The position numbers and the translations under genes are program-made. 64,000 bases of DNA from an uncultured delta proteobacterium (lineage in GTDB: Bacteria > Desulfobacterota > Binatia > UBA9968), in the NCBI GenBank assembly GCA_963771465.1, contig CAVYTU010000018.1, forward strand, positions 130,490-194,489, written 5' to 3'. This document shows, in pieces, positions 34,412 to 54,076 of the stretch. Position 1 is the stretch's first letter. Each line of letters opens with the position of its first letter. The notes under the pieces are model-generated. The model saw only the letters and a program-made list of their open reading frames with translations. It made no database searches and was not told where the DNA came from.

Positions 34412-35425
34412 ATGAAGAAGATCATGGGGATGATTCTGAGCGCGGTGATTTTCCTTGGCTGGTTTTCCGTGTCCGCGCGGGCGCAAGCGCCGCGCAAAGT
34501 GAAAATGACGATTCCCGTCGTCGCCCACTCGATGACGCCGGTGTATGTCGCCCAGAGCAAAGGCTTCTTTGCCGAAGAGAAGCTCGAACTCGACATCACT
34601 TCCACAGGCGGCGGCGGTCCCGACATTCGAGCCCTCATCGCCGGCGACGTCGAGTTCACTTTTACCACCGGTGACAACGTCATACTGGCGCATCAGGAAG
34701 GCAAGCGGCTGTTGATGGTGATGAGCGGCCTTAACAAAGTGTTCATCAACTGGGCGATGCACAAGGAGGCCGCCAAGGCGAAGGGTATCACCGAGTCGAT
34801 GCCGCTGGCGGATAAAATCAAAACGCTCAAGGGGCTCAACGTGGGAGTGACCAATCCCGGCGCATTGACGGCGCACCTGGCGGCGTTCGTTATTCGCAAA
34901 GCGGGATACAACCCGCAGCAAGACGTGCAGGTGGTTCCCATCGGTGCCGGGCCGACTTGGCTCGCGGCTTTGGAAAATCGCAAAGTGGATGTCGCGTTGA
35001 CGGCGCCGCCGGTGCCGGAGACGGCGATCAGCCGCGGCTTCGCGATCATGTTCATCAACAACGCCAAAGGCGAAGACCCATCGATCCCGGAATTTCTCAT
35101 GGAGAATCTCGTCGCTCGTCCCGAGACGGTGGCCAAAGATGGTGATATCGTGCGGCGCATGGTGCGCGCGCTCACGCGGGCAAATCAATGGGCGCTCAAG
35201 AGCACGCCTGAACAACTGGCCGACGCATTGAAGCCGGCGCTGGGCAAAACCCCGCCTGATTTATTACTCGCCGGCGCCGCATCGGTGATGCCGGCGCTCA
35301 GCCCCGACGGCCGCACCAGCGAGCGAAGCTTTCAAGTGACCCAGGACGTTCTCGAACAGGCGGGCATCTTGAAAAAACGCGCGCCTTACAGCGAACTTGT
35401 CACCAATGAGTTTCTCGCGAAATGA
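34412..35425 (+). CDS. NitT/TauT family ABC substrate-binding protein
   Basis: Signal peptide, KGFFAEEKLE, lies between the ATPase and the permease. Confidence 0.9.
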   Translation: MKKIMGMILSAVIFLGWFSVSARAQAPRKVKMTIPVVAHSMTPVYVAQSKGFFAEEKLELDITSTGGGGPDIRALIAGDVEFTFTTGDNVILAHQEGKRLLMVMSGLNKVFINWAMHKEAAKAKGITESMPLADKIKTLKGLNVGVTNPGALTAHLAAFVIRKAGYNPQQDVQVVPIGAGPTWLAALENRKVDVALTAPPVPETAISRGFAIMFINNAKGEDPSIPEFLMENLVARPETVAKDGDIVRRMVRALTRANQWALKSTPEQLADALKPALGKTPPDLLLAGAASVMPALSPDGRTSERSFQVTQDVLEQAGILKKRAPYSELVTNEFLAK

Positions 35426-42927: not shown

Positions 42928-44013
42928 ATGGCTTGGAATGGAATACCCGTCGTCGACGGCGACGGACATGTGATGGAAGATTGGGATGCGCTCTTGCATT
43001 ATATGCCTGAGCCGTACATTAAAAGCGGTCGCTTCAAGGGGCGAATTTTTCCGCCGCTCGATCATCTGCATTCCGCCAGTTTGTTTCAGCTTGTTCCCGG
43101 CGCATTCCGCCAAGTTCGCGAAGACGGCTGGCTCGAATTCATGGAAGATGTCGGTATCGAGCGCGCCGTGCTTTACAGCACCGGCGGCTTAGCTTTTGGC
43201 AAAGTGATTACGCGGGAGTTCGCCGTCGACGTGGCGCGCGCCTGGAACAACTGGTTCGCCGATACCTACTTGAAGAAAAGCCCGCGTTTCCAAGGTTTGG
43301 CGTTGATTCCGCTGCAAGAGCCAGAGGAAGCCGTGAAGGAAATGCGCCGCGCGGTGACCGAATTGAATTTCTGCGGCGTCATGCTGCCGTCCACCGGTTT
43401 CAAAGGTCATCTGGGCGACAAAGAATACTGGCCGGTCTACGCCGAAGCTAACCGGTTGGGTTGCTGCATCGGAGTCCATGGCGGCGCGCATGAAGGCTTG
43501 GGCATGGATTGGCTGACGCCCTATGCGCCGATCAATGGTTTGGGACATCCCTTCGGTCAGATGGTGGCGTTCGCCGGTTTTGTTTTCAATGGTCTTTTCG
43601 ACAAGTACCCCAACATGCGCGTCGGTTTCATGGAAGCGGGTGTCTCGTGGCTGCAAACATGTTTGGAAAGATTCGACCGCGGCTGGGAAACTCACATTCA
43701 ATACGATCCGCGCGGCGAATACATCGCGCTTAAACCCAGCGAGAAAATCAGCGACTACATTCGCCGCCATGTCGAAGCGGGAAGAATCTTCGTCGGCTGC
43801 GAGGGAACCGAGAAAGCGTTGCATCATTTGGTTGAAGCGGTCGGCAACAAGCCGTTCATGTTTTCGAGCGACTTTCCGCACGAGGTCAACAACGAATACT
43901 GCAAGCATGAGATCGAAGAGATCGTCGACAACGAGCATTTGAGTGACGACGACAAGCATGCCGTGTTGCACCGAAATGCCGAACGGTTCTATGGATTGAA
44001 GCCGCTTGGATAG
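42928..44013 (+). CDS. Amidohydrolase-2 family protein
   Basis: VVDGDGHVME, ARAWNNW, FSSDFPH, RBS GAGGAGG. Confidence 0.92.
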   Translation: MAWNGIPVVDGDGHVMEDWDALLHYMPEPYIKSGRFKGRIFPPLDHLHSASLFQLVPGAFRQVREDGWLEFMEDVGIERAVLYSTGGLAFGKVITREFAVDVARAWNNWFADTYLKKSPRFQGLALIPLQEPEEAVKEMRRAVTELNFCGVMLPSTGFKGHLGDKEYWPVYAEANRLGCCIGVHGGAHEGLGMDWLTPYAPINGLGHPFGQMVAFAGFVFNGLFDKYPNMRVGFMEAGVSWLQTCLERFDRGWETHIQYDPRGEYIALKPSEKISDYIRRHVEAGRIFVGCEGTEKALHHLVEAVGNKPFMFSSDFPHEVNNEYCKHEIEEIVDNEHLSDDDKHAVLHRNAERFYGLKPLG

Positions 44014-44181
44014 GAGAATCGAGGCTTCGGACAGGCACAGTTGGAGATAGCGCGAGTTGGAAAGCGAAATTTTGCCGATGGACGGGCCGCTGTCAGACTG
44101 CCGATCGAGCGCATGTTGAGTATTATTTGATCGCAAATAGCTCGGAGAGTAGCACGCCGCAAATTAGAAAGGTCGACGAAG

Positions 44182-45798
44182 ATGGAAGATGTTATCGAGA
44201 TCGTCAATCCAATCGGTATCCCACGCAGACAACAGAGCAAGCTGGCGCCACGACAATACCAAAGTCTGGGTGGCCGACGCATCGGCCTGCTCGATAACAA
44301 CAAACCCAACGCCGACAAATTTCTCCAATTCATCGGCGCAATGCTGCAAGAACGTCACGCTGATATCGAGCTGGTGCCCAAACGGAAAATGACGCGCATG
44401 GAGGCCGACGGTTTGGTCGAGTTGGCCAGCCGTTGCGATGTGGTCATCAACGCTTTCGCCGATTGAGGCTCATGCACGTCGTGGAGTGTCCACGACTCGG
44501 TCAAGCTTGAAAGCGCCGGTATTCCTACCGCCACGGTGGTCACGGATGAATTCTTTACTTTAGCGCAAGCCGAATCGCGAAGTCGCGGTAGCGCTGATTT
44601 GCCGCTCGTCAAGGTGCCTCACCCGATCGGCACGATCGCGCTTGATCCGTTGCGCTCGGTGGCGCAGTTGGTGATCGATAAGATTATTGCCGCCGTTGTC
44701 AATAATGGAGCCAGCAACGGCGCTTGTGTCGAGGGACAAGCACACACCGACGATACGCGATTGATGCTGTCCGTGCCGCGCGATCCGGCAGAAATGTTTC
44801 ACAATTTAGCCGATCGGGGTTGGACCGATGGGCTGCCTGTGATCGCGCCGACTGAAGCTGCTGTGCGCGCGATGATCGCTGCGAGTGGATTGGCAAAGGA
44901 TTTCAGTCTCGGCGTGTTTTCGCCTTTAAACGGTAACGCCACCGTCGAGAAATTGGCTGCCAACGCCGTAATGGCCGGCTGCTTGCCGGAGTACTTTCCG
45001 CTGGTGCTGACGGCGGTGCGTGCGATGCTGCGACCGGGATACAATCTCGACGGCGTGCAGACGACGACCGGCAATGTCGCGCCGCTGGCGATTGTCAATG
45101 GACCCTGTCGAGATAAATTGGCGATCAACTACGGCGCCAACGCGCTGGGCCAAGGCTGGCGCGCCAATGGCACCATCGGCCGAGCGATTCGGCTGATCAT
45201 GGCGAATGTCGGTGGCGCGGCGCCGGGCTTGTTCGACAAGTCGACTTTAGGTCAGCCGGCGAAGTATTCTTTTTGCATCGGCGAAAATGAAAAGGAGAAT
45301 CCATGGCAGCCGCTCCATGTCGAGCGCGGCAGGGCGCAGGACGCGGATGCCGTGAGCATGTTTGGCTGCAGCGGCGTTTATAGCGCGGTCGATATGGCCA
45401 GCCAGACGGCTAAGGGATTGCTCAAAACGTTCGCTCTGACGATGACAGGAGGATTGACAAGCGGTGTCACCAGCACCGAAGTGATGTTTATCATTTGCCC
45501 GGAGCATGCGGCGATTTTCGCCCGCGACGGTTTTTCCAAGGATAAGCTTCGCACCGAGCTTTTCGCTATCGCGCGTGTGCCGTTCGATAAAATTTCGGAT
45601 GAAAATTTAGAGCTGCTGGAAAAGCGCCGGCCGCAGTGGTTCCAGGTCGGTTTGGCCCGCGAAATCGGCGCCGTTGATAAGCCGGAAGATATTTGGCTCG
45701 TCGTTGCCGGCGGCGCCGGCGCTAAGTCGGCGTATATTCCAGGGAGAACGGGGACGCGGCTGCAAACCGTGGCCGTGGGAAGCGGAGTGCTGAAGTAA
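44182..45798 (+). CDS. UGSC-family selenoprotein (Sec at codon 95) fused to a large conserved C-terminal domain
   Basis: ORFs 44182-44466 and 44536-45798 share a frame and are separated only by TGA 44464-44466: ...VINAFAD-U-GSCTSWSVHDSVKLESAGIPTATVVTDEF..., with a downstream SECIS-like hairpin. Confidence 0.88.
44478..44496 (+). promoter_or_regulatory. Bacterial SECIS-like hairpin
   Basis: GTCGTGGA-GTG-TCCACGAC perfect 8-bp stem starting 11 nt after the UGA, with G leading the apical loop. Confidence 0.72.
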
Positions 45799-46790
45799 TG
45801 GTGCGGAATAAAAATATTGCGATCCCGATAATTTTTTTCTGTGTGTCGTTTATGCCCTTCGTGGCGACGGCGCAAACCAAGTCGATCGTCATCGGCGAAG
45901 GCGTGCGCGGGGCGATGTATTTGCCGGCTTACATCGCCGAGGAGAAGGGATTTTTCAAACGGCGCGAGCTCGATACGAAAATCGTCACCTTTAGCCGGAG
46001 CAATGATATCAATGCGCTGGTCGCCGGCGATATCCAGTTTGATTTGACCGCGCCGGATAAGGTCATTCACAGCGCGCTGGGCGGCTATCCGGTCAAGATG
46101 GTGATGGGTACCGCGCGAGGATTGAACTTGGCGCTCGTGGTTCATCCGTCGATTCGTTCCGCGGCGGATCTGCGCGGCAAGTCGGTGGCGATCACCGGCT
46201 TTTCCGGCCTGCCCTACACCGGTTTGCTGCTCTGTCTGAAAGAACTCGGCATGGCCAAAGATCAGGTGGTTCCTCTCAACATCGGCGGTAAGTCGGCGCG
46301 CTTCGAAGCTCTGCTCGGCAACAAAGTGCCGGCGGCGATTCTCGATCCGCCGTACACCACCTTCGCGGCCAAAGAAGGTTACAAATTATTGGTCGATTTG
46401 GCGCCGCTTGATGTGCCGTATCTGCGCAACATCGTCGCGGTGTCCGAAAAATCATTGCGTGACGACGCGCGCACCGTAGCGCGCTTTGTCGCGGCGCTGG
46501 CGGAAGGGATTCAATTTTACCGTAACAAGGCGAATAAAGATGACAGCATGAAAATCTTGGCCAAATACCTGCGTCTGCCGCTGGAGAAAAATCGCGCGCT
46601 GATCGAAGAGGGTTACGAAACTTACCGCGACATCATGTTGAGAAAACCGTACGCCGATCCGGGCGCCATGAAGATACTGTTAGAAATCATCGCGGAATCG
46701 AATCCCAAGGCGAAGGGGATGAACTTGGCGGCATTGATCGATTCGAGTTTTGTCGAACGGCTCGATCGGGAAGGGGCATTCGAGAAATAA
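45798..46790 (+). CDS. NMT1/SsuA-like ABC substrate-binding protein
   Basis: Signal peptide, YIAEEKGFFKR, DLRGKSVAI. The ATG overlaps the selenoprotein stop (TAATG). Confidence 0.9.
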   Translation: MVRNKNIAIPIIFFCVSFMPFVATAQTKSIVIGEGVRGAMYLPAYIAEEKGFFKRRELDTKIVTFSRSNDINALVAGDIQFDLTAPDKVIHSALGGYPVKMVMGTARGLNLALVVHPSIRSAADLRGKSVAITGFSGLPYTGLLLCLKELGMAKDQVVPLNIGGKSARFEALLGNKVPAAILDPPYTTFAAKEGYKLLVDLAPLDVPYLRNIVAVSEKSLRDDARTVARFVAALAEGIQFYRNKANKDDSMKILAKYLRLPLEKNRALIEEGYETYRDIMLRKPYADPGAMKILLEIIAESNPKAKGMNLAALIDSSFVERLDREGAFEK

Positions 46791-46823: not shown

Positions 46824-47723
46824 CTAGAGACCTTCTTGCAGCCGGCCGATGACTCGGCGCCAAATTTTCGTCTCGCCGCCGCTGGGGATTTTATTAGCAT
46901 CGGCGCTGCTGCGTGATTGGCTGATTTCCTGAAGTTCGCGATTTAGTTGCTCGCATTCGCCGGACAGCCGCTTGATCAAATTACCCATCTCAACTTCCTT
47001 GGCCGCGGTAGCTTGGAGCAGCGTGTCCTTTTCTTTGAGCTTTGCTTCCTCTATTTGCAGTTCTTGTTGAGTGTCGCGCAGCCGCTGTTCCAGCTCGGCA
47101 ATTTTACTTTGGAAATCGCCCTCAATGGCCTTGATCATACGGTTTTTCGTTTCGATCGTTTCGTCGCGCGCGGCTAATTGTTGTTTGAGGTGAGCGAGCT
47201 CTTGGTTGAGCGGCGGGGTTTCCGCCTGAACCGCTGATGGCCTTGGTTCCTCGGTTTGTTTCGGCTGCTGACGGACAATGGTCACGGCAGCGCCGTTTGA
47301 ACGCAGCGCATCGATTTCCCGCTCCATGGTCTCGATTTCTTTTCGGTGTAGTTGTTTCTCCAACGTTGTGAGTTGCGCCCGCGAGGCTTGCTCCAGGCGC
47401 GTCATGGCGCGTTGCTGTTCGCGAAATTGCGTGTTGGCTTGATCCAGCTGCCGGCGCAAGTAGACGACCTCGCTGTGGCGATTATCTTCCACTCGCTGGG
47501 TCGTTTCGGATTGTTGCAGCGCCGTGGTGCAGGCGCGGTCGGCGAGAGAAGTGAGCTTGTTGATGTAATTGAGCAGCTGGTCGGCTTGGACTTCAATATC
47601 GAGAATATTTTTGGCGTCGCCAAAGGAGAAAGACGGTATTGCCGGCAGGGCGACAACTTCCGCCGTTTTTGCCGGTCGGCCTCCCGGCTCCTTTACCGAC
47701 TGCACGTTTCGATGATCCTGCAT
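46824..47723 (-). CDS. Coiled-coil hypothetical protein
   Basis: E/Q/L/K-rich heptads and a terminal amphipathic IWRRVIGRLQEGL. ATG 47723 has a GAGGA RBS. Confidence 0.7.
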   Translation of the reverse strand: MQDHRNVQSVKEPGGRPAKTAEVVALPAIPSFSFGDAKNILDIEVQADQLLNYINKLTSLADRACTTALQQSETTQRVEDNRHSEVVYLRRQLDQANTQFREQQRAMTRLEQASRAQLTTLEKQLHRKEIETMEREIDALRSNGAAVTIVRQQPKQTEEPRPSAVQAETPPLNQELAHLKQQLAARDETIETKNRMIKAIEGDFQSKIAELEQRLRDTQQELQIEEAKLKEKDTLLQATAAKEVEMGNLIKRLSGECEQLNRELQEISQSRSSADANKIPSGGETKIWRRVIGRLQEGL

Positions 47724-48087
47724 TGAGCTAACGGTTTCCTCAAGCGAGGCTGGTTTCCCCAAAGCCATTGGTAGAAACGTCAGCAAATCCGAGTCCAAAA
47801 ATCACTCTCGTTGGAGCTTCTAAAAATGCCCGGGATTACCGAATGACGTTCCAGCAGGCCCTTGATGTACAGGATTTTGCCGTTGGGTGTCACAAAAGTG
47901 TTCGTTCTCCGTAAAGCTGGCATGTTGTCATCATCCGAGATTTCCCGTGGAAATATTTGTATGCGCCGCACTCGCCGGCCGTATTTATCAACATCGTACC
48001 GGCGATTGACAACACGCCGCCTCTTTACCAAACTTGCCGGCCCGTGTTAGGTTTCGGCATTGAATAATCTAATTGCGAGGTTTGAAG

Positions 48088-51103: not shown

Positions 51104-51940
51104 CTAGAAAAAAGCTATCGTGCGCATTTCAATACTTTCCCGCGGCGGCGCATCCGGCGGAGCGGTGGGATCGTCGAAGGCACAGTGCGCCGTCCAGCGG
51201 GCGCGGCCGTCTTTCATTGAATCGAAGGTCTTAAACACCATCGCCTCGTTGCGTTGCATGTTGGGGAAGTAATACCAGCGGTGTTCCGGATTGAACGTGG
51301 AGTGGTAGACTTCGCCGCGGCGGTCCGGGTAGATGCGCGCGCTGGGGATCAACTCCTTGGTGCCGATGCTGCGCGCGTCTGCGATCGCCAGCGGCTCACG
51401 CTGCACCGGTTTATTGATCGGCCGCCAGGTTTGCACCACCGCGAATCGACTCTTGAGCAGCTCTTCCGCTTGGTTCGGCAAGAGATCGCGCACCCGCTGC
51501 GGACCGGACCATTCGGTGTAATCGTTGTGCGCGTTGCGTACGGGACCGCTGATGTTCTTTTCCTCGCGGGTCGCTGAATCGGCCGATCGTAGAGTGTGAT
51601 CGAAGACCAGCACGCGCTTCGCGCCAGCGGTTTGTTTCACCAGTTCTTCGGTCTCGTTGTAGTAGACCGAACGCACTTCATCCTCGTCGTAGAAGTCCTT
51701 CATCCTGGTTTCGTGCTCAACCAGGATAAATCCCTCGCGCTCAAGGGACAGCTGATCGGCGATGGCGCGACCGTTGTAGATCGGCATCCTATGCTCGATG
51801 TATTTTCCCTTGCGCTGCTTATCGGCGACAGATTGGCTTACACCCCCGTAGCTTTCGGGTGTTTCGGTGCTGTCAGCCAGGTAGTTTAGCAACGCTTCGA
51901 ACGCCGGCGCCGATTCTTGGACTCGTTCCGCTCGAGACAT
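51104..51940 (-). CDS. CmcJ/NvfI-like Fe(II)/2-oxoglutarate oxidoreductase
   Basis: LSLEREGF, VFDHTLR, AHNDYT (HxD), HRWYYFP, TAHCAF, RESIEMR. Confidence 0.85.
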   Translation of the reverse strand: MSRAERVQESAPAFEALLNYLADSTETPESYGGVSQSVADKQRKGKYIEHRMPIYNGRAIADQLSLEREGFILVEHETRMKDFYDEDEVRSVYYNETEELVKQTAGAKRVLVFDHTLRSADSATREEKNISGPVRNAHNDYTEWSGPQRVRDLLPNQAEELLKSRFAVVQTWRPINKPVQREPLAIADARSIGTKELIPSARIYPDRRGEVYHSTFNPEHRWYYFPNMQRNEAMVFKTFDSMKDGRARWTAHCAFDDPTAPPDAPPRESIEMRTIAFF

Positions 51941-52621: not shown

Positions 52622-53794
52622 TTATTGTTGGACCTGCTGCCGGTCGTGATCGGTCGCTATTCTTCGCGGTTCATTGTCCGCCGCGCCGTAAAAGCGCGCG
52701 CAGTTGTCCCAAAGAATTTTTCGCTTGTCTTCATCTGACAATTTCGACGCGAGAAAACTCTCGACGGCATGCGGATACTTGGAATCGCCGTGCGGATAGT
52801 CGGTGGAGAACACCAATTGATCGCAGCCGAACTCTTCGATGGTATAGCGCGCCGGCGCTTCATCAGGCTCGATGGAAATCCAGCATTGCCGTTTGAAATA
52901 TTCGCTCGGCTTCATGACCAGGTCCGGCATAAAGACGTCGCCTTCCCGTTCATAACCTTCGTCCAAGCGCCACAACAGCCACGGTAGCCAAGAACAGTTG
53001 GCTTCGAGAAAGGCGACGCGCATTTTTGGATGGCGTTGGAGAATGCCGCCACCGAGAAAAGCGCCCATGCCCATCATTTGCTCAAACGGCTGGGCGTAGA
53101 CCCGACGCAAGCCAAAATTAGGTTCAAAGTGTTCCGCCGCTTGACGCGAGCGCGAAGCGGAGGCTTCGTGAAAGCCGAGCGGCAAGTTCAATTCTTCGAG
53201 CAGATTCCACAGCGGTTCGTAATGCGGGTCGTACCAGTTTTTGCCGTTGATGATGTTCGAACGCAAAAACACCGAGCGAAAGCCGTATTCTTGGGCCACC
53301 CGTCGGGTTTCACGCAACGCATCATCCAAGTCATAAACCGAAATCATGCCGGCACCGAGCAGACGCTTTGGATCGGCCGAACAGAAATCATGCAGCCAGT
53401 CGTTGTAAGCGCGCGCCATCGCCGCCGCGAAACGCGGCTCTTGATCGGGAAAGGTTAGGATGCCCAGGCCGCGAGTGGGAAACAACACCGCGGTGTCGAT
53501 GCCTTCGGTGTCCATGGCTTCGAGCTGCACCGCGCCGGTCCAACCGCGTTCGGCGTGGCTGCGATAGATGTCTTGGTTCTTGTTGAAATTGCTGCCGCGG
53601 TGCGGCGTGCCGCCGGTGCGCCGGGTGTCCTTCGGCACATTGGGAAAGATCGTGCCGAGGTCGCGCACATTATCCGAGGTCCGACCGCGCGGCGCCTGAT
53701 CGCTAAACTCGGGATCGATGTAGCGCTGCCAAAGATCGGGCGGCTCCATGATATGCATGTCGCTGTCAAAAACTCTAAAGCCGTTTTTCGCCAT
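52622..53794 (-). CDS. Amidohydrolase-2 family protein
   Basis: MAKNGFRVFDSDMHIMEP (true start 53794), AYNDWL, FSTDYPH. Confidence 0.92.
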   Translation of the reverse strand: MAKNGFRVFDSDMHIMEPPDLWQRYIDPEFSDQAPRGRTSDNVRDLGTIFPNVPKDTRRTGGTPHRGSNFNKNQDIYRSHAERGWTGAVQLEAMDTEGIDTAVLFPTRGLGILTFPDQEPRFAAAMARAYNDWLHDFCSADPKRLLGAGMISVYDLDDALRETRRVAQEYGFRSVFLRSNIINGKNWYDPHYEPLWNLLEELNLPLGFHEASASRSRQAAEHFEPNFGLRRVYAQPFEQMMGMGAFLGGGILQRHPKMRVAFLEANCSWLPWLLWRLDEGYEREGDVFMPDLVMKPSEYFKRQCWISIEPDEAPARYTIEEFGCDQLVFSTDYPHGDSKYPHAVESFLASKLSDEDKRKILWDNCARFYGAADNEPRRIATDHDRQQVQQ

Positions 53795-53989
53795 GCTGCG
53801 TCCTTTCCCTTCTCGAAAGCGTAATGCCGAGCCAGGTTCGATGTCAAGCCGACTCAGCGTCAATCGAAGTCCGATCTTCGTTTCCACAGCCTGCCTGAAC
53901 TCTTTGGGGCAACCGGCAAATACGATGATACCAAACGAGTTGAGCTGCGGCGGCTCCGCTACTATCGGAGAAACTTCTCCCGGTAACGC

Positions 53990-54005
53990 TTGGCATGGAT
54001 AGTGC
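53990..54005 (+). promoter_or_regulatory. Sigma54 promoter candidate
   Basis: TTGGCATGGATAGTGC (GG-N10-GC) upstream of the small ORF at 54077. Confidence 0.5.
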
Positions 54006-54076
54006 GGATTGACCGTGAGCGACAACACCCCCGACCTGTTTGGCAATCAAGAATGGGGGCGTTTGGGAGGAGGATT

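Follow-up and report, generated by a model that had tools for sequence, protein, structure and literature searches.

A UGSC/Unknown_1 fusion gene with a probable selenocysteine codon in a soil-lineage Binatia genome

The locus and its in-frame UGA

The window analysed here is a 64,000-nucleotide stretch of contig 18 from the 6.9 Mb, 19-contig genome of an uncultured delta proteobacterium (Desulfobacterota; Binatia; GenBank assembly GCA_963771465.1). It contains a gene for a two-domain protein of the UGSC family, in which a domain named after its U-G-S-C motif is fused to a larger partner domain (Table 1). With TGA translated as selenocysteine (Sec, U), a single plus-strand frame runs from the ATG at 44182 to the TAA at 45796–45798, and codon 95 is its sole interruption. 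Open reading frame (ORF) calling with translation table 11 instead gives two pieces in the same frame, 44182–44466 (94 residues) and 44536–45798 (420 residues, with a GTG start). The original prediction was that two such ORFs, parted only by TGA 44464–44466, together encode 538 residues, and the sequence, the translation and the ORF list all agree with it. The read-through product has the sequence ...NAFAD-U-GSCTSWSVHDSVKLESAGIPTAT... around the stop, so that Sec95 and Cys98 stand in the context ...NAFAD-U95-G-S-C98-TSWSVHDSVKLESAGIPTAT....

Table 1. Features of the fusion gene and its surroundings (window positions) and related loci elsewhere in the genome (contig positions)
Feature	Position	Strand	Basis or remark
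Complete gene, very probably for a selenoprotein; 538 codons plus TAA, one in-frame UGA	44182..45798	+	Sequence, translation, orthologue layout
UGA, very probably selenocysteine 95; Cys98 (44473-44475) completes the U-G-S-C motif	44464..44466	+	Translation, alignment of relatives, orthologues, phylum sample
SECIS-like hairpin GUCGUGGA-GUG-UCCACGAC	44478..44496	+	Folding, alignment, covariation, raised depth in soil metagenome runs
UGSC domain (residues 6-172), with a predicted alpha/beta fold of flavodoxin-like type	44197..44697	+	PF24696, NF041046, model, Foldseek
Low-confidence linker, residues about 173-199	44698..44778	+	pLDDT 79 and 57 in the blocks for 171-190; aligns poorly
'Unknown_1' partner domain, residues about 200-538	44779..45795	+	Alignment conservation, PMC2398784 motif, model
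NMT1/SsuA-like substrate-binding protein gene	45798..46790	+	ATG overlaps the TAA by one base; at 4/4 orthologous loci examined
Upstream Amidohydro_2 gene	42928..44013	+	At 3/4 orthologous loci
Fused UGSC/Unknown_1 copies	Contig 18 (the gene at 44182..45798); contig 17 at 61 kb; contig 11
Split, adjacent UGSC and Unknown_1 pairs	Contig 17 at 441 kb and 458 kb
GrdE/PrdA-like and GrdB-like pairs	C17:160162-162549; C11:115398-117888; C7:3954-6572; C13:123391-125825; C15:775527-777939

The UGSC profile PF24696 matches residues 6–172 with 155.5 bits (cut-off 25) and NF041046 (UGSC_fam) matches with 136.7 bits (cut-off 125), both across the stop. Eight orthologues from sister genomes, 64–74% identical over essentially their full length, each contain exactly one TGA at the same place (the tally includes G005, which is flagged as unpublished; no claim depends on G005 alone). 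The read-through frame is beyond chance because the profile spans the stop and all eight orthologues keep this single TGA. Two orthologous loci (G003:C13:26637-28242 and G019:C13:712310-713894; L039, L040) match as two overlapping pieces and not as one open frame, which could reflect a frameshift or an assembly error. When 101 genomes were sampled evenly across the phylum, UGSC was found in 11, one of which has ten matches; 28 of the 31 matches carry one TGA, two carry none and one is decayed.

The motif AD-U95-G-S-C98-TSWSVHD is present in the protein, and relatives have Sec or Cys in the same column. Among the 16 full-length UGSC-bearing relatives in the alignment this column is Cys in 13 and Ile or Ser in three. 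The Cys forms came from a hidden Markov model (HMM) search; a word-index search with residues 1–110 for close full-length Cys homologues returned a single protein, which ends at the Sec codon. Contigs assembled from soil DNA in two other studies cover the site (X1 record 1, 44100–44685; X2 record 22, 44100–45419), and no differing letter, such as would turn TGA into TGC or TGG, is listed at 44464–44466. A 337-nucleotide contig from a soil RNA library (X15, 44239–44575, no differences) also bridges the UGA codon, although an RNA library can contain DNA.

The genome encodes the complete machinery for Sec insertion. The selA, selB and selD genes (614.1, 358.6 and 376.3 bits, all above the cut-offs) are consecutive at C14:197319-201637 (L001, L009, L011), and the tRNA-Sec gene (selC) lies on contig 13 (76.7 bits, cut-off 47). 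SelD is itself probably Sec-containing, since its gene has an in-frame TGA of its own. The original prediction had proposed looking both for these four genes and for homologues with Cys at the TGA position, and both were found.

Bacterial selenocysteine insertion sequence (SECIS) elements are stem-loops that lie shortly 3' of the UGA and whose apical loop contains a G. Such a hairpin is present at 44478–44496, with an 8 bp stem that begins 14 nucleotides past the U of the UGA and a GUG loop. Each of the 12 orthologues and paralogues examined at first keeps it, even those with a protein identity of only 31–36%. In an alignment of 18 sequences 99.3% of the cells are paired, and two G-C pairs are replaced by A-U pairs through compensatory, synonymous codon changes; sliding the 3' arm along the same alignment lowers the pairing to 21–49%. 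A distant copy (L075, G130:C30) has the motif UGAC and a different hairpin, GCUGGUC-GUU-GACCAGC, a few bases further downstream. An Rfam scan around the UGA gave only a chance microRNA match (E = 8.5), which says nothing on SECIS elements; Rfam is not known to include a general model for those of bacteria.

The sequencing depth over this region is also unusual. In two soil DNA runs it climbs from about 6 to a maximum near 245, some 40 times that of the flanks, in the bins at 44405–44526, which span a 40-nucleotide piece at 44457–44498. The UGA-plus-hairpin module is conserved nearly letter for letter across many genes, because many unrelated soil contigs match 44457–44498 alone, their loose ends diverging on both sides.

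Termination at the UGA, giving a separate 94-residue peptide and a 420-residue protein from the GTG at 44536, or a pseudogene, would agree with standard gene calling, and one clearly decayed copy with several stops does occur elsewhere in the genome. However, the stop would then sit midway through a folded domain; TGA, and not another stop, is kept in the eight orthologues and in 28 of the 31 phylum matches; it aligns with Cys in relatives; a conserved hairpin lies just downstream; and the genome has the full set of Sec genes. We therefore regard termination as highly improbable. These sequence comparisons indicate that the gene at 44182–45798 very probably encodes a true selenoprotein, in line with the original assignment of the TGA as a Sec codon within a UGSC-family domain.

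The two domains and their relatives

The full-length AlphaFold model has a predicted local distance difference test score (pLDDT) of 94 and a predicted template-modelling score (pTM) of 0.94. In this model the N-terminal domain adopts a parallel β/α fold in which helix 96–111 begins at Sec95. Foldseek aligns it with AzoR, the flavodoxin domain of flavodiiron proteins, CheB and flavodoxin, with probability 1.0 and modest template-modelling (TM) scores, and the fold is thus predicted to be flavodoxin-like. In 2008, by contrast, a 'likely Trx-like fold' had been proposed for UGSC (PMC2398784; this and the other papers cited by PMC number are represented by the portions of their text available to us). 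The protein shares with the thioredoxin-fold UxxC/CxxU selenoproteins (Trx-, Prx- and AhpD-like) a UxxC redox motif where a helix begins and, probably, a connection to the thioredoxin reductase system. The predicted fold would nevertheless set it apart from them, and no thioredoxin-family profile matched the 538-residue protein in Pfam and NCBIfam scans. Searches of PDB sequences with the N-terminal domain, with the C-terminal domain and with a family profile gave no match beyond YqeY at E = 0.11, which was treated as chance.

The original prediction also likened the Sec region to that of glycine and proline reductase selenoprotein B (GrdB/PrdB). The likeness appears to be real, though distant. 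In both groups (the latter comprising GrdB, GrdF, GrdH and PrdB; TIGR01917/TIGR01918, PF07355) Sec follows a β-strand and is itself followed by ...E-x-A-G-I-P-T. When eight UGSC domains were aligned by hhalign with the four intact GrdB-like selenoproteins of the same genome, the profiles matched with 80.6% probability (E = 1.3e-5) over 64 columns, Sec on Sec. TIGR01917 matches residues 81–158 at E = 0.0037, with 16.2 bits against a cut-off of 602.2; it is matched by five of 19 relatives at E <= 1, with 0.0037 the best value. Neither TIGR01918 nor PF07355 matched the 538-residue protein in the Pfam and NCBIfam scans, and UGSC is without the N-terminal part of GrdB, of about 340 residues. From its sequence the UGSC domain thus appears to be related to the Sec core of protein B, though distantly and in a shorter form, and it is not a member of that family.

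The genome itself allows the two systems to be compared, as it has five adjacent pairs of GrdE/PrdA-like (PF09338) and GrdB-like genes (L050–L056). Four of the five GrdB-like genes read through intact with one in-frame TGA each (TIGR01918, 396–464 bits; cut-off 65.45) and have the Sec motif ...ILTST-U-GTSTRSGAAITTELEKAGIPT... (TST-U-GTST); the fifth, on contig 15, matches in three separate frames. Five loci of protein-B-type reductases are an unusual number for a soil genome. Within this genome UGSC always occurs with its own partner domain and GrdB-like proteins always with a GrdE/PrdA-like protein; all five PF09338 genes adjoin GrdB-like genes and none adjoins a UGSC locus. The domain fused to UGSC had no Pfam match at E <= 0.1, PF09338 included. 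The architecture is thus the same in both systems, a Sec module with a larger partner, and each would need a system that reduces thiols; the partner differs, being the pyruvoyl protein GrdE/PrdA in one and the domain described below in the other.

This partner, of 330 residues, is by its sequence the 'Unknown_1' domain of Zhang & Gladyshev (2008). It carries the motif A-x-N-x-V-M-A-G-C-x-P-E-Y with a conserved Cys, and its segment AANAVMAGCLPEYFP matches the rows AVNGVMAGCRPEYMP and AINAVMAGCKPEYMP of Fig. S1A in the available part of that paper (PMC2398784). In the same figure Unknown_1 starts at residue 241 in Hyphomonas and Sulfitobacter, consistent with a fusion, and at residues 1–94 in Methanothermobacter and others, consistent with a standalone protein. 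The paper names Hyphomonas neptunium, which is in culture, as a carrier. The family is large, with 4733 clusters at 50% identity for E <= 0.001 and 1172 for E <= 1e-30. Its conserved residues are D216, N261, C267 (44980–44982), T296, N329, R334, K361, C365 (45274–45276), E368, W375 and H442. Among 150 sequences the counts are 150 for G307, 149 each for R334 and E368, 148 for N329, 147 for W375, 143 for D216, 142 for C267, 136 for C365 and 124 for H442.

Unknown_1 fell into no Pfam or NCBIfam family when the protein was scanned, and the PDB sequence searches gave no relative of it. It is modelled with very high confidence (pLDDT 96). The best Foldseek match is class I fumarate hydratase (E = 2e-4, probability 0.91), which was rejected as a fold assignment in view of TM scores of 0.28–0.33, an r.m.s.d. 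of about 16 Å and a VIA Z of 4.2. The best VIA scores overall (Z = 5.8; chorismate mutase, encapsulin A-domain and HypA) were likewise set aside, as they span just a common α+β subdomain, residues ~200–327.

Class I fumarate hydratase is a 4Fe–4S enzyme, and its match, weak as it is, could be taken together with the four conserved Cys/Sec positions to suggest that Sec95, Cys98, Cys267 and Cys365 bind a metal or an Fe–S cluster, for detoxification, sensing or hydro-lyase chemistry. We consider this unlikely: the structural alignment is poor in TM score, r.m.s.d. and VIA Z (the VIA score refers to the same chain), the cysteines are not all kept among paralogues, and the fusion partners of Unknown_1 are disulfide reductases, not metal-handling domains.

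Fusions, paralogues and gene neighbourhood

The fusion of UGSC to the domain with the GWTDGLP and NAVMAGC motifs, as originally predicted, is real and widespread. The 149 best Unknown_1 representatives comprise 83 standalone proteins, 46 apparent fusions truncated after the Sec codon, which start 55–149 residues ahead of the GWTDGLP motif, and 20 with a long N-terminus. The alignment took in 16 of these 20, of which all but P0194 have a UGSC-like domain at the N-terminus, 15 in number. Another of the 20, P0214, has a domain of the AhpC/TSA fold instead of UGSC. The order is reversed in four representatives, in which Unknown_1 comes first and only the first half of UGSC comes after it, stopping right at the Sec position. 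Unknown_1 is also fused to a thioredoxin-reductase-like (TrxR-like) domain in P0244 (TIGR01292, 331 bits) and to an FTR-beta/FtrB-like domain in P0266. The Pfam scan of the Unknown_1 alignment covered 16 of its 150 sequences.

Five intact copies are present in the genome itself, three fused and two split into adjacent UGSC and Unknown_1 genes; split pairs are also found in the genomes of relatives. A further copy at C14:928247-929400 (L027, L029, L030) is decayed, with several TGA and TAA stops, and is probably a pseudogene. The paralogue on contig 11 lies about 100 nucleotides upstream of a TrxR-like gene (TIGR01292, 321 bits). In both this paralogue and that on contig 17 at 61 kb, Sec is retained while Ala replaces C267, and the contig 11 paralogue also lacks C365.

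These patterns bear on which residues do the chemistry. Unknown_1 could itself be the catalyst, cycling Cys267 and Cys365 between dithiol and disulfide, with UGSC as a dedicated (seleno)redoxin that makes no contact with the substrate, much as thioredoxin serves MsrA, ArsC and PAPS reductase. Such a relay is suggested by the conservation of C267 and C365 (142 and 136 of 150 sequences), by the replacement of UGSC with an AhpC/TSA-fold domain in P0214, by the direct fusion of Unknown_1 to a TrxR-like domain in P0244 and by the three full-length relatives that have a degenerate UGSC motif and keep both cysteines. It is at odds with the two paralogues that retain Sec without C267, one of them also without C365, and with the direct action of Sec on the substrate in GrdB and PrdB, the probable relatives of UGSC, as given for the proline reductase mechanism in the available text of PMC11229817. 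The relay accounts for the evidence nearly as well as direct action of Sec95, and we regard it as possible, though short of probable. Because Sec persists in the two paralogues with Ala at position 267, a direct attack by Sec, by analogy with proline reductase, is slightly favoured.

The neighbouring genes are less informative. NMT1-like and Amidohydro_2 genes flank most of the UGSC/Unknown_1 copies, and it is uncertain whether the NMT1/SsuA-like and Amidohydro_2 genes on either side of the fusion gene belong to the system. The genome has at least 150 NMT1/THI5-like matches (341 candidates, of which 150 were scored) and at least 136 Amidohydro_2 matches, so the neighbourhood was rejected as a clue to the substrate. 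Members of these large expansions within the window include those at 34412–35425, 45798–46790, 42928–44013 and 52622–54046. In a sister genome family the UGSC/Unknown_1 pair lies among acyl-CoA dehydrogenase, enoyl-CoA hydratase, thiolase-like and TctC genes. Two further ORFs of the window, 46824–47798 (minus strand, 324 residues) and 51104–51940 (minus strand, 278 residues), matched no Pfam family at E <= 0.001.

A possible thioredoxin-linked selenoenzyme

The recoding signals, the identities of the domains, their pattern of fusion and adjacency and the links to thioredoxin-reductase-type modules provide the basis for a mechanistic model. From them we infer reductase chemistry, a direct role for Sec and a path for the electrons. 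SelB and tRNA-Sec would insert selenocysteine at UGA-95 under the direction of the hairpin that begins 14 nucleotides downstream. The UGSC domain would be a flavodoxin-like module with the redox pair Sec95-x-x-Cys98 where a helix begins, and Unknown_1 would most likely form the substrate pocket, with Sec95 acting at its active site. An Se–S bond would then form between Sec95 and Cys98, or between Sec95 and Cys267 or Cys365, and a thioredoxin-type reductase would restore the reduced state. On balance, the sequence comparisons lead us to lean towards this reading, in which the protein would be a self-contained selenol/thiol reductase with Sec95 and Cys98 placed at the Unknown_1 pocket and recharged by thioredoxin-type reductases.

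Several observations weigh against parts of this interpretation. Both compensatory pairs in the hairpin stem from one sequence, and the hairpin overlaps the strongly conserved codons for TSWSVHD. The 67 nucleotides after the UGA fold no better than shuffled sequences (z = −0.75; 43 of 200 shuffles at least as good), and support for the hairpin therefore rests on its conservation and covariation. The similarity to GrdB spans just the 64 aligned columns and is far below the family cut-offs. Three of the 16 full-length relatives have neither Sec nor Cys in the UGSC motif, with Unknown_1 intact. No convincing structural relative of Unknown_1 was found (best VIA Z 5.8, Foldseek TM 0.28–0.33), so that its chemistry is a guess, and the NMT1 and Amidohydro_2 neighbours say little on the substrate because these families are so numerous in the genome.

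The family to which the gene belongs is known yet uncharacterized in function, and the gene at 44182–45798 is a further member. The UGSC family, its Sec motif and its fusion to Unknown_1 are already in print in the available parts of PMC2398784 and PMC1976440, and to call the selenoprotein hidden, as the original prediction did, was an overstatement. The present gene differs in nothing essential from the UGSC/Unknown_1 fusion reported in 2008: it has the same U-G-S-C motif and the NAVMAGC-PEY motif of Fig. S1A in the fused domain, and Sec forms outnumber Cys forms, as they do in the Global Ocean Sampling (GOS) table of that paper (255 versus 21; PMC2398784). The present copy belongs to a lineage from soil, in which a genome has five intact copies. 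Two reviews, from 2022 and 2026, list the function of UGSC as unknown in the portions available (PMC9312934, PMC13188914); the latter describes it as uncharacterized. A full-text literature search found no paper characterizing the function of UGSC, and its matches were, by title, bioinformatic surveys. To the printed record the present analysis may add the prediction of a flavodoxin-like fold, the profile-level link to GrdB with Sec on Sec, the fusion in reverse order and the fusions of Unknown_1 to FTR-like, TrxR-like and AhpC-fold domains.

UGSC is among the most abundant selenoprotein families of environmental metagenomes. The locus is typical of the family in public data in being cut at the Sec codon, and thousands of database entries are therefore truncated at the N-terminus. 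The expected loss through gene calling is apparent in the best 120 database matches, which are 397–447 residues long and cover 73–80% of the query. Because the fusion was published in 2008 (PMC2398784), the value of the window lies in confirmation and correct annotation and not in discovery. For the family, the comparative evidence replaces an 'unknown function' with a model that can be tested, that of a thioredoxin-linked, GrdB-like reductase, built on an obligate partner domain in either order, fusions of the thioredoxin-reductase type, a probable distant kinship to GrdB and a predicted flavodoxin-like fold. More speculatively, UGSC/Unknown_1 proteins might represent an undescribed class of selenium-dependent reductases, in which a minimal GrdB-like Sec module has had its pyruvoyl subunit swapped for Unknown_1 as the catalytic domain. 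Such a class may have radiated into many substrate-specific paralogues in soil and aquatic bacteria, and would cleave bonds reductively in small organic acids or amines with electrons from thioredoxin-reductase-type enzymes.

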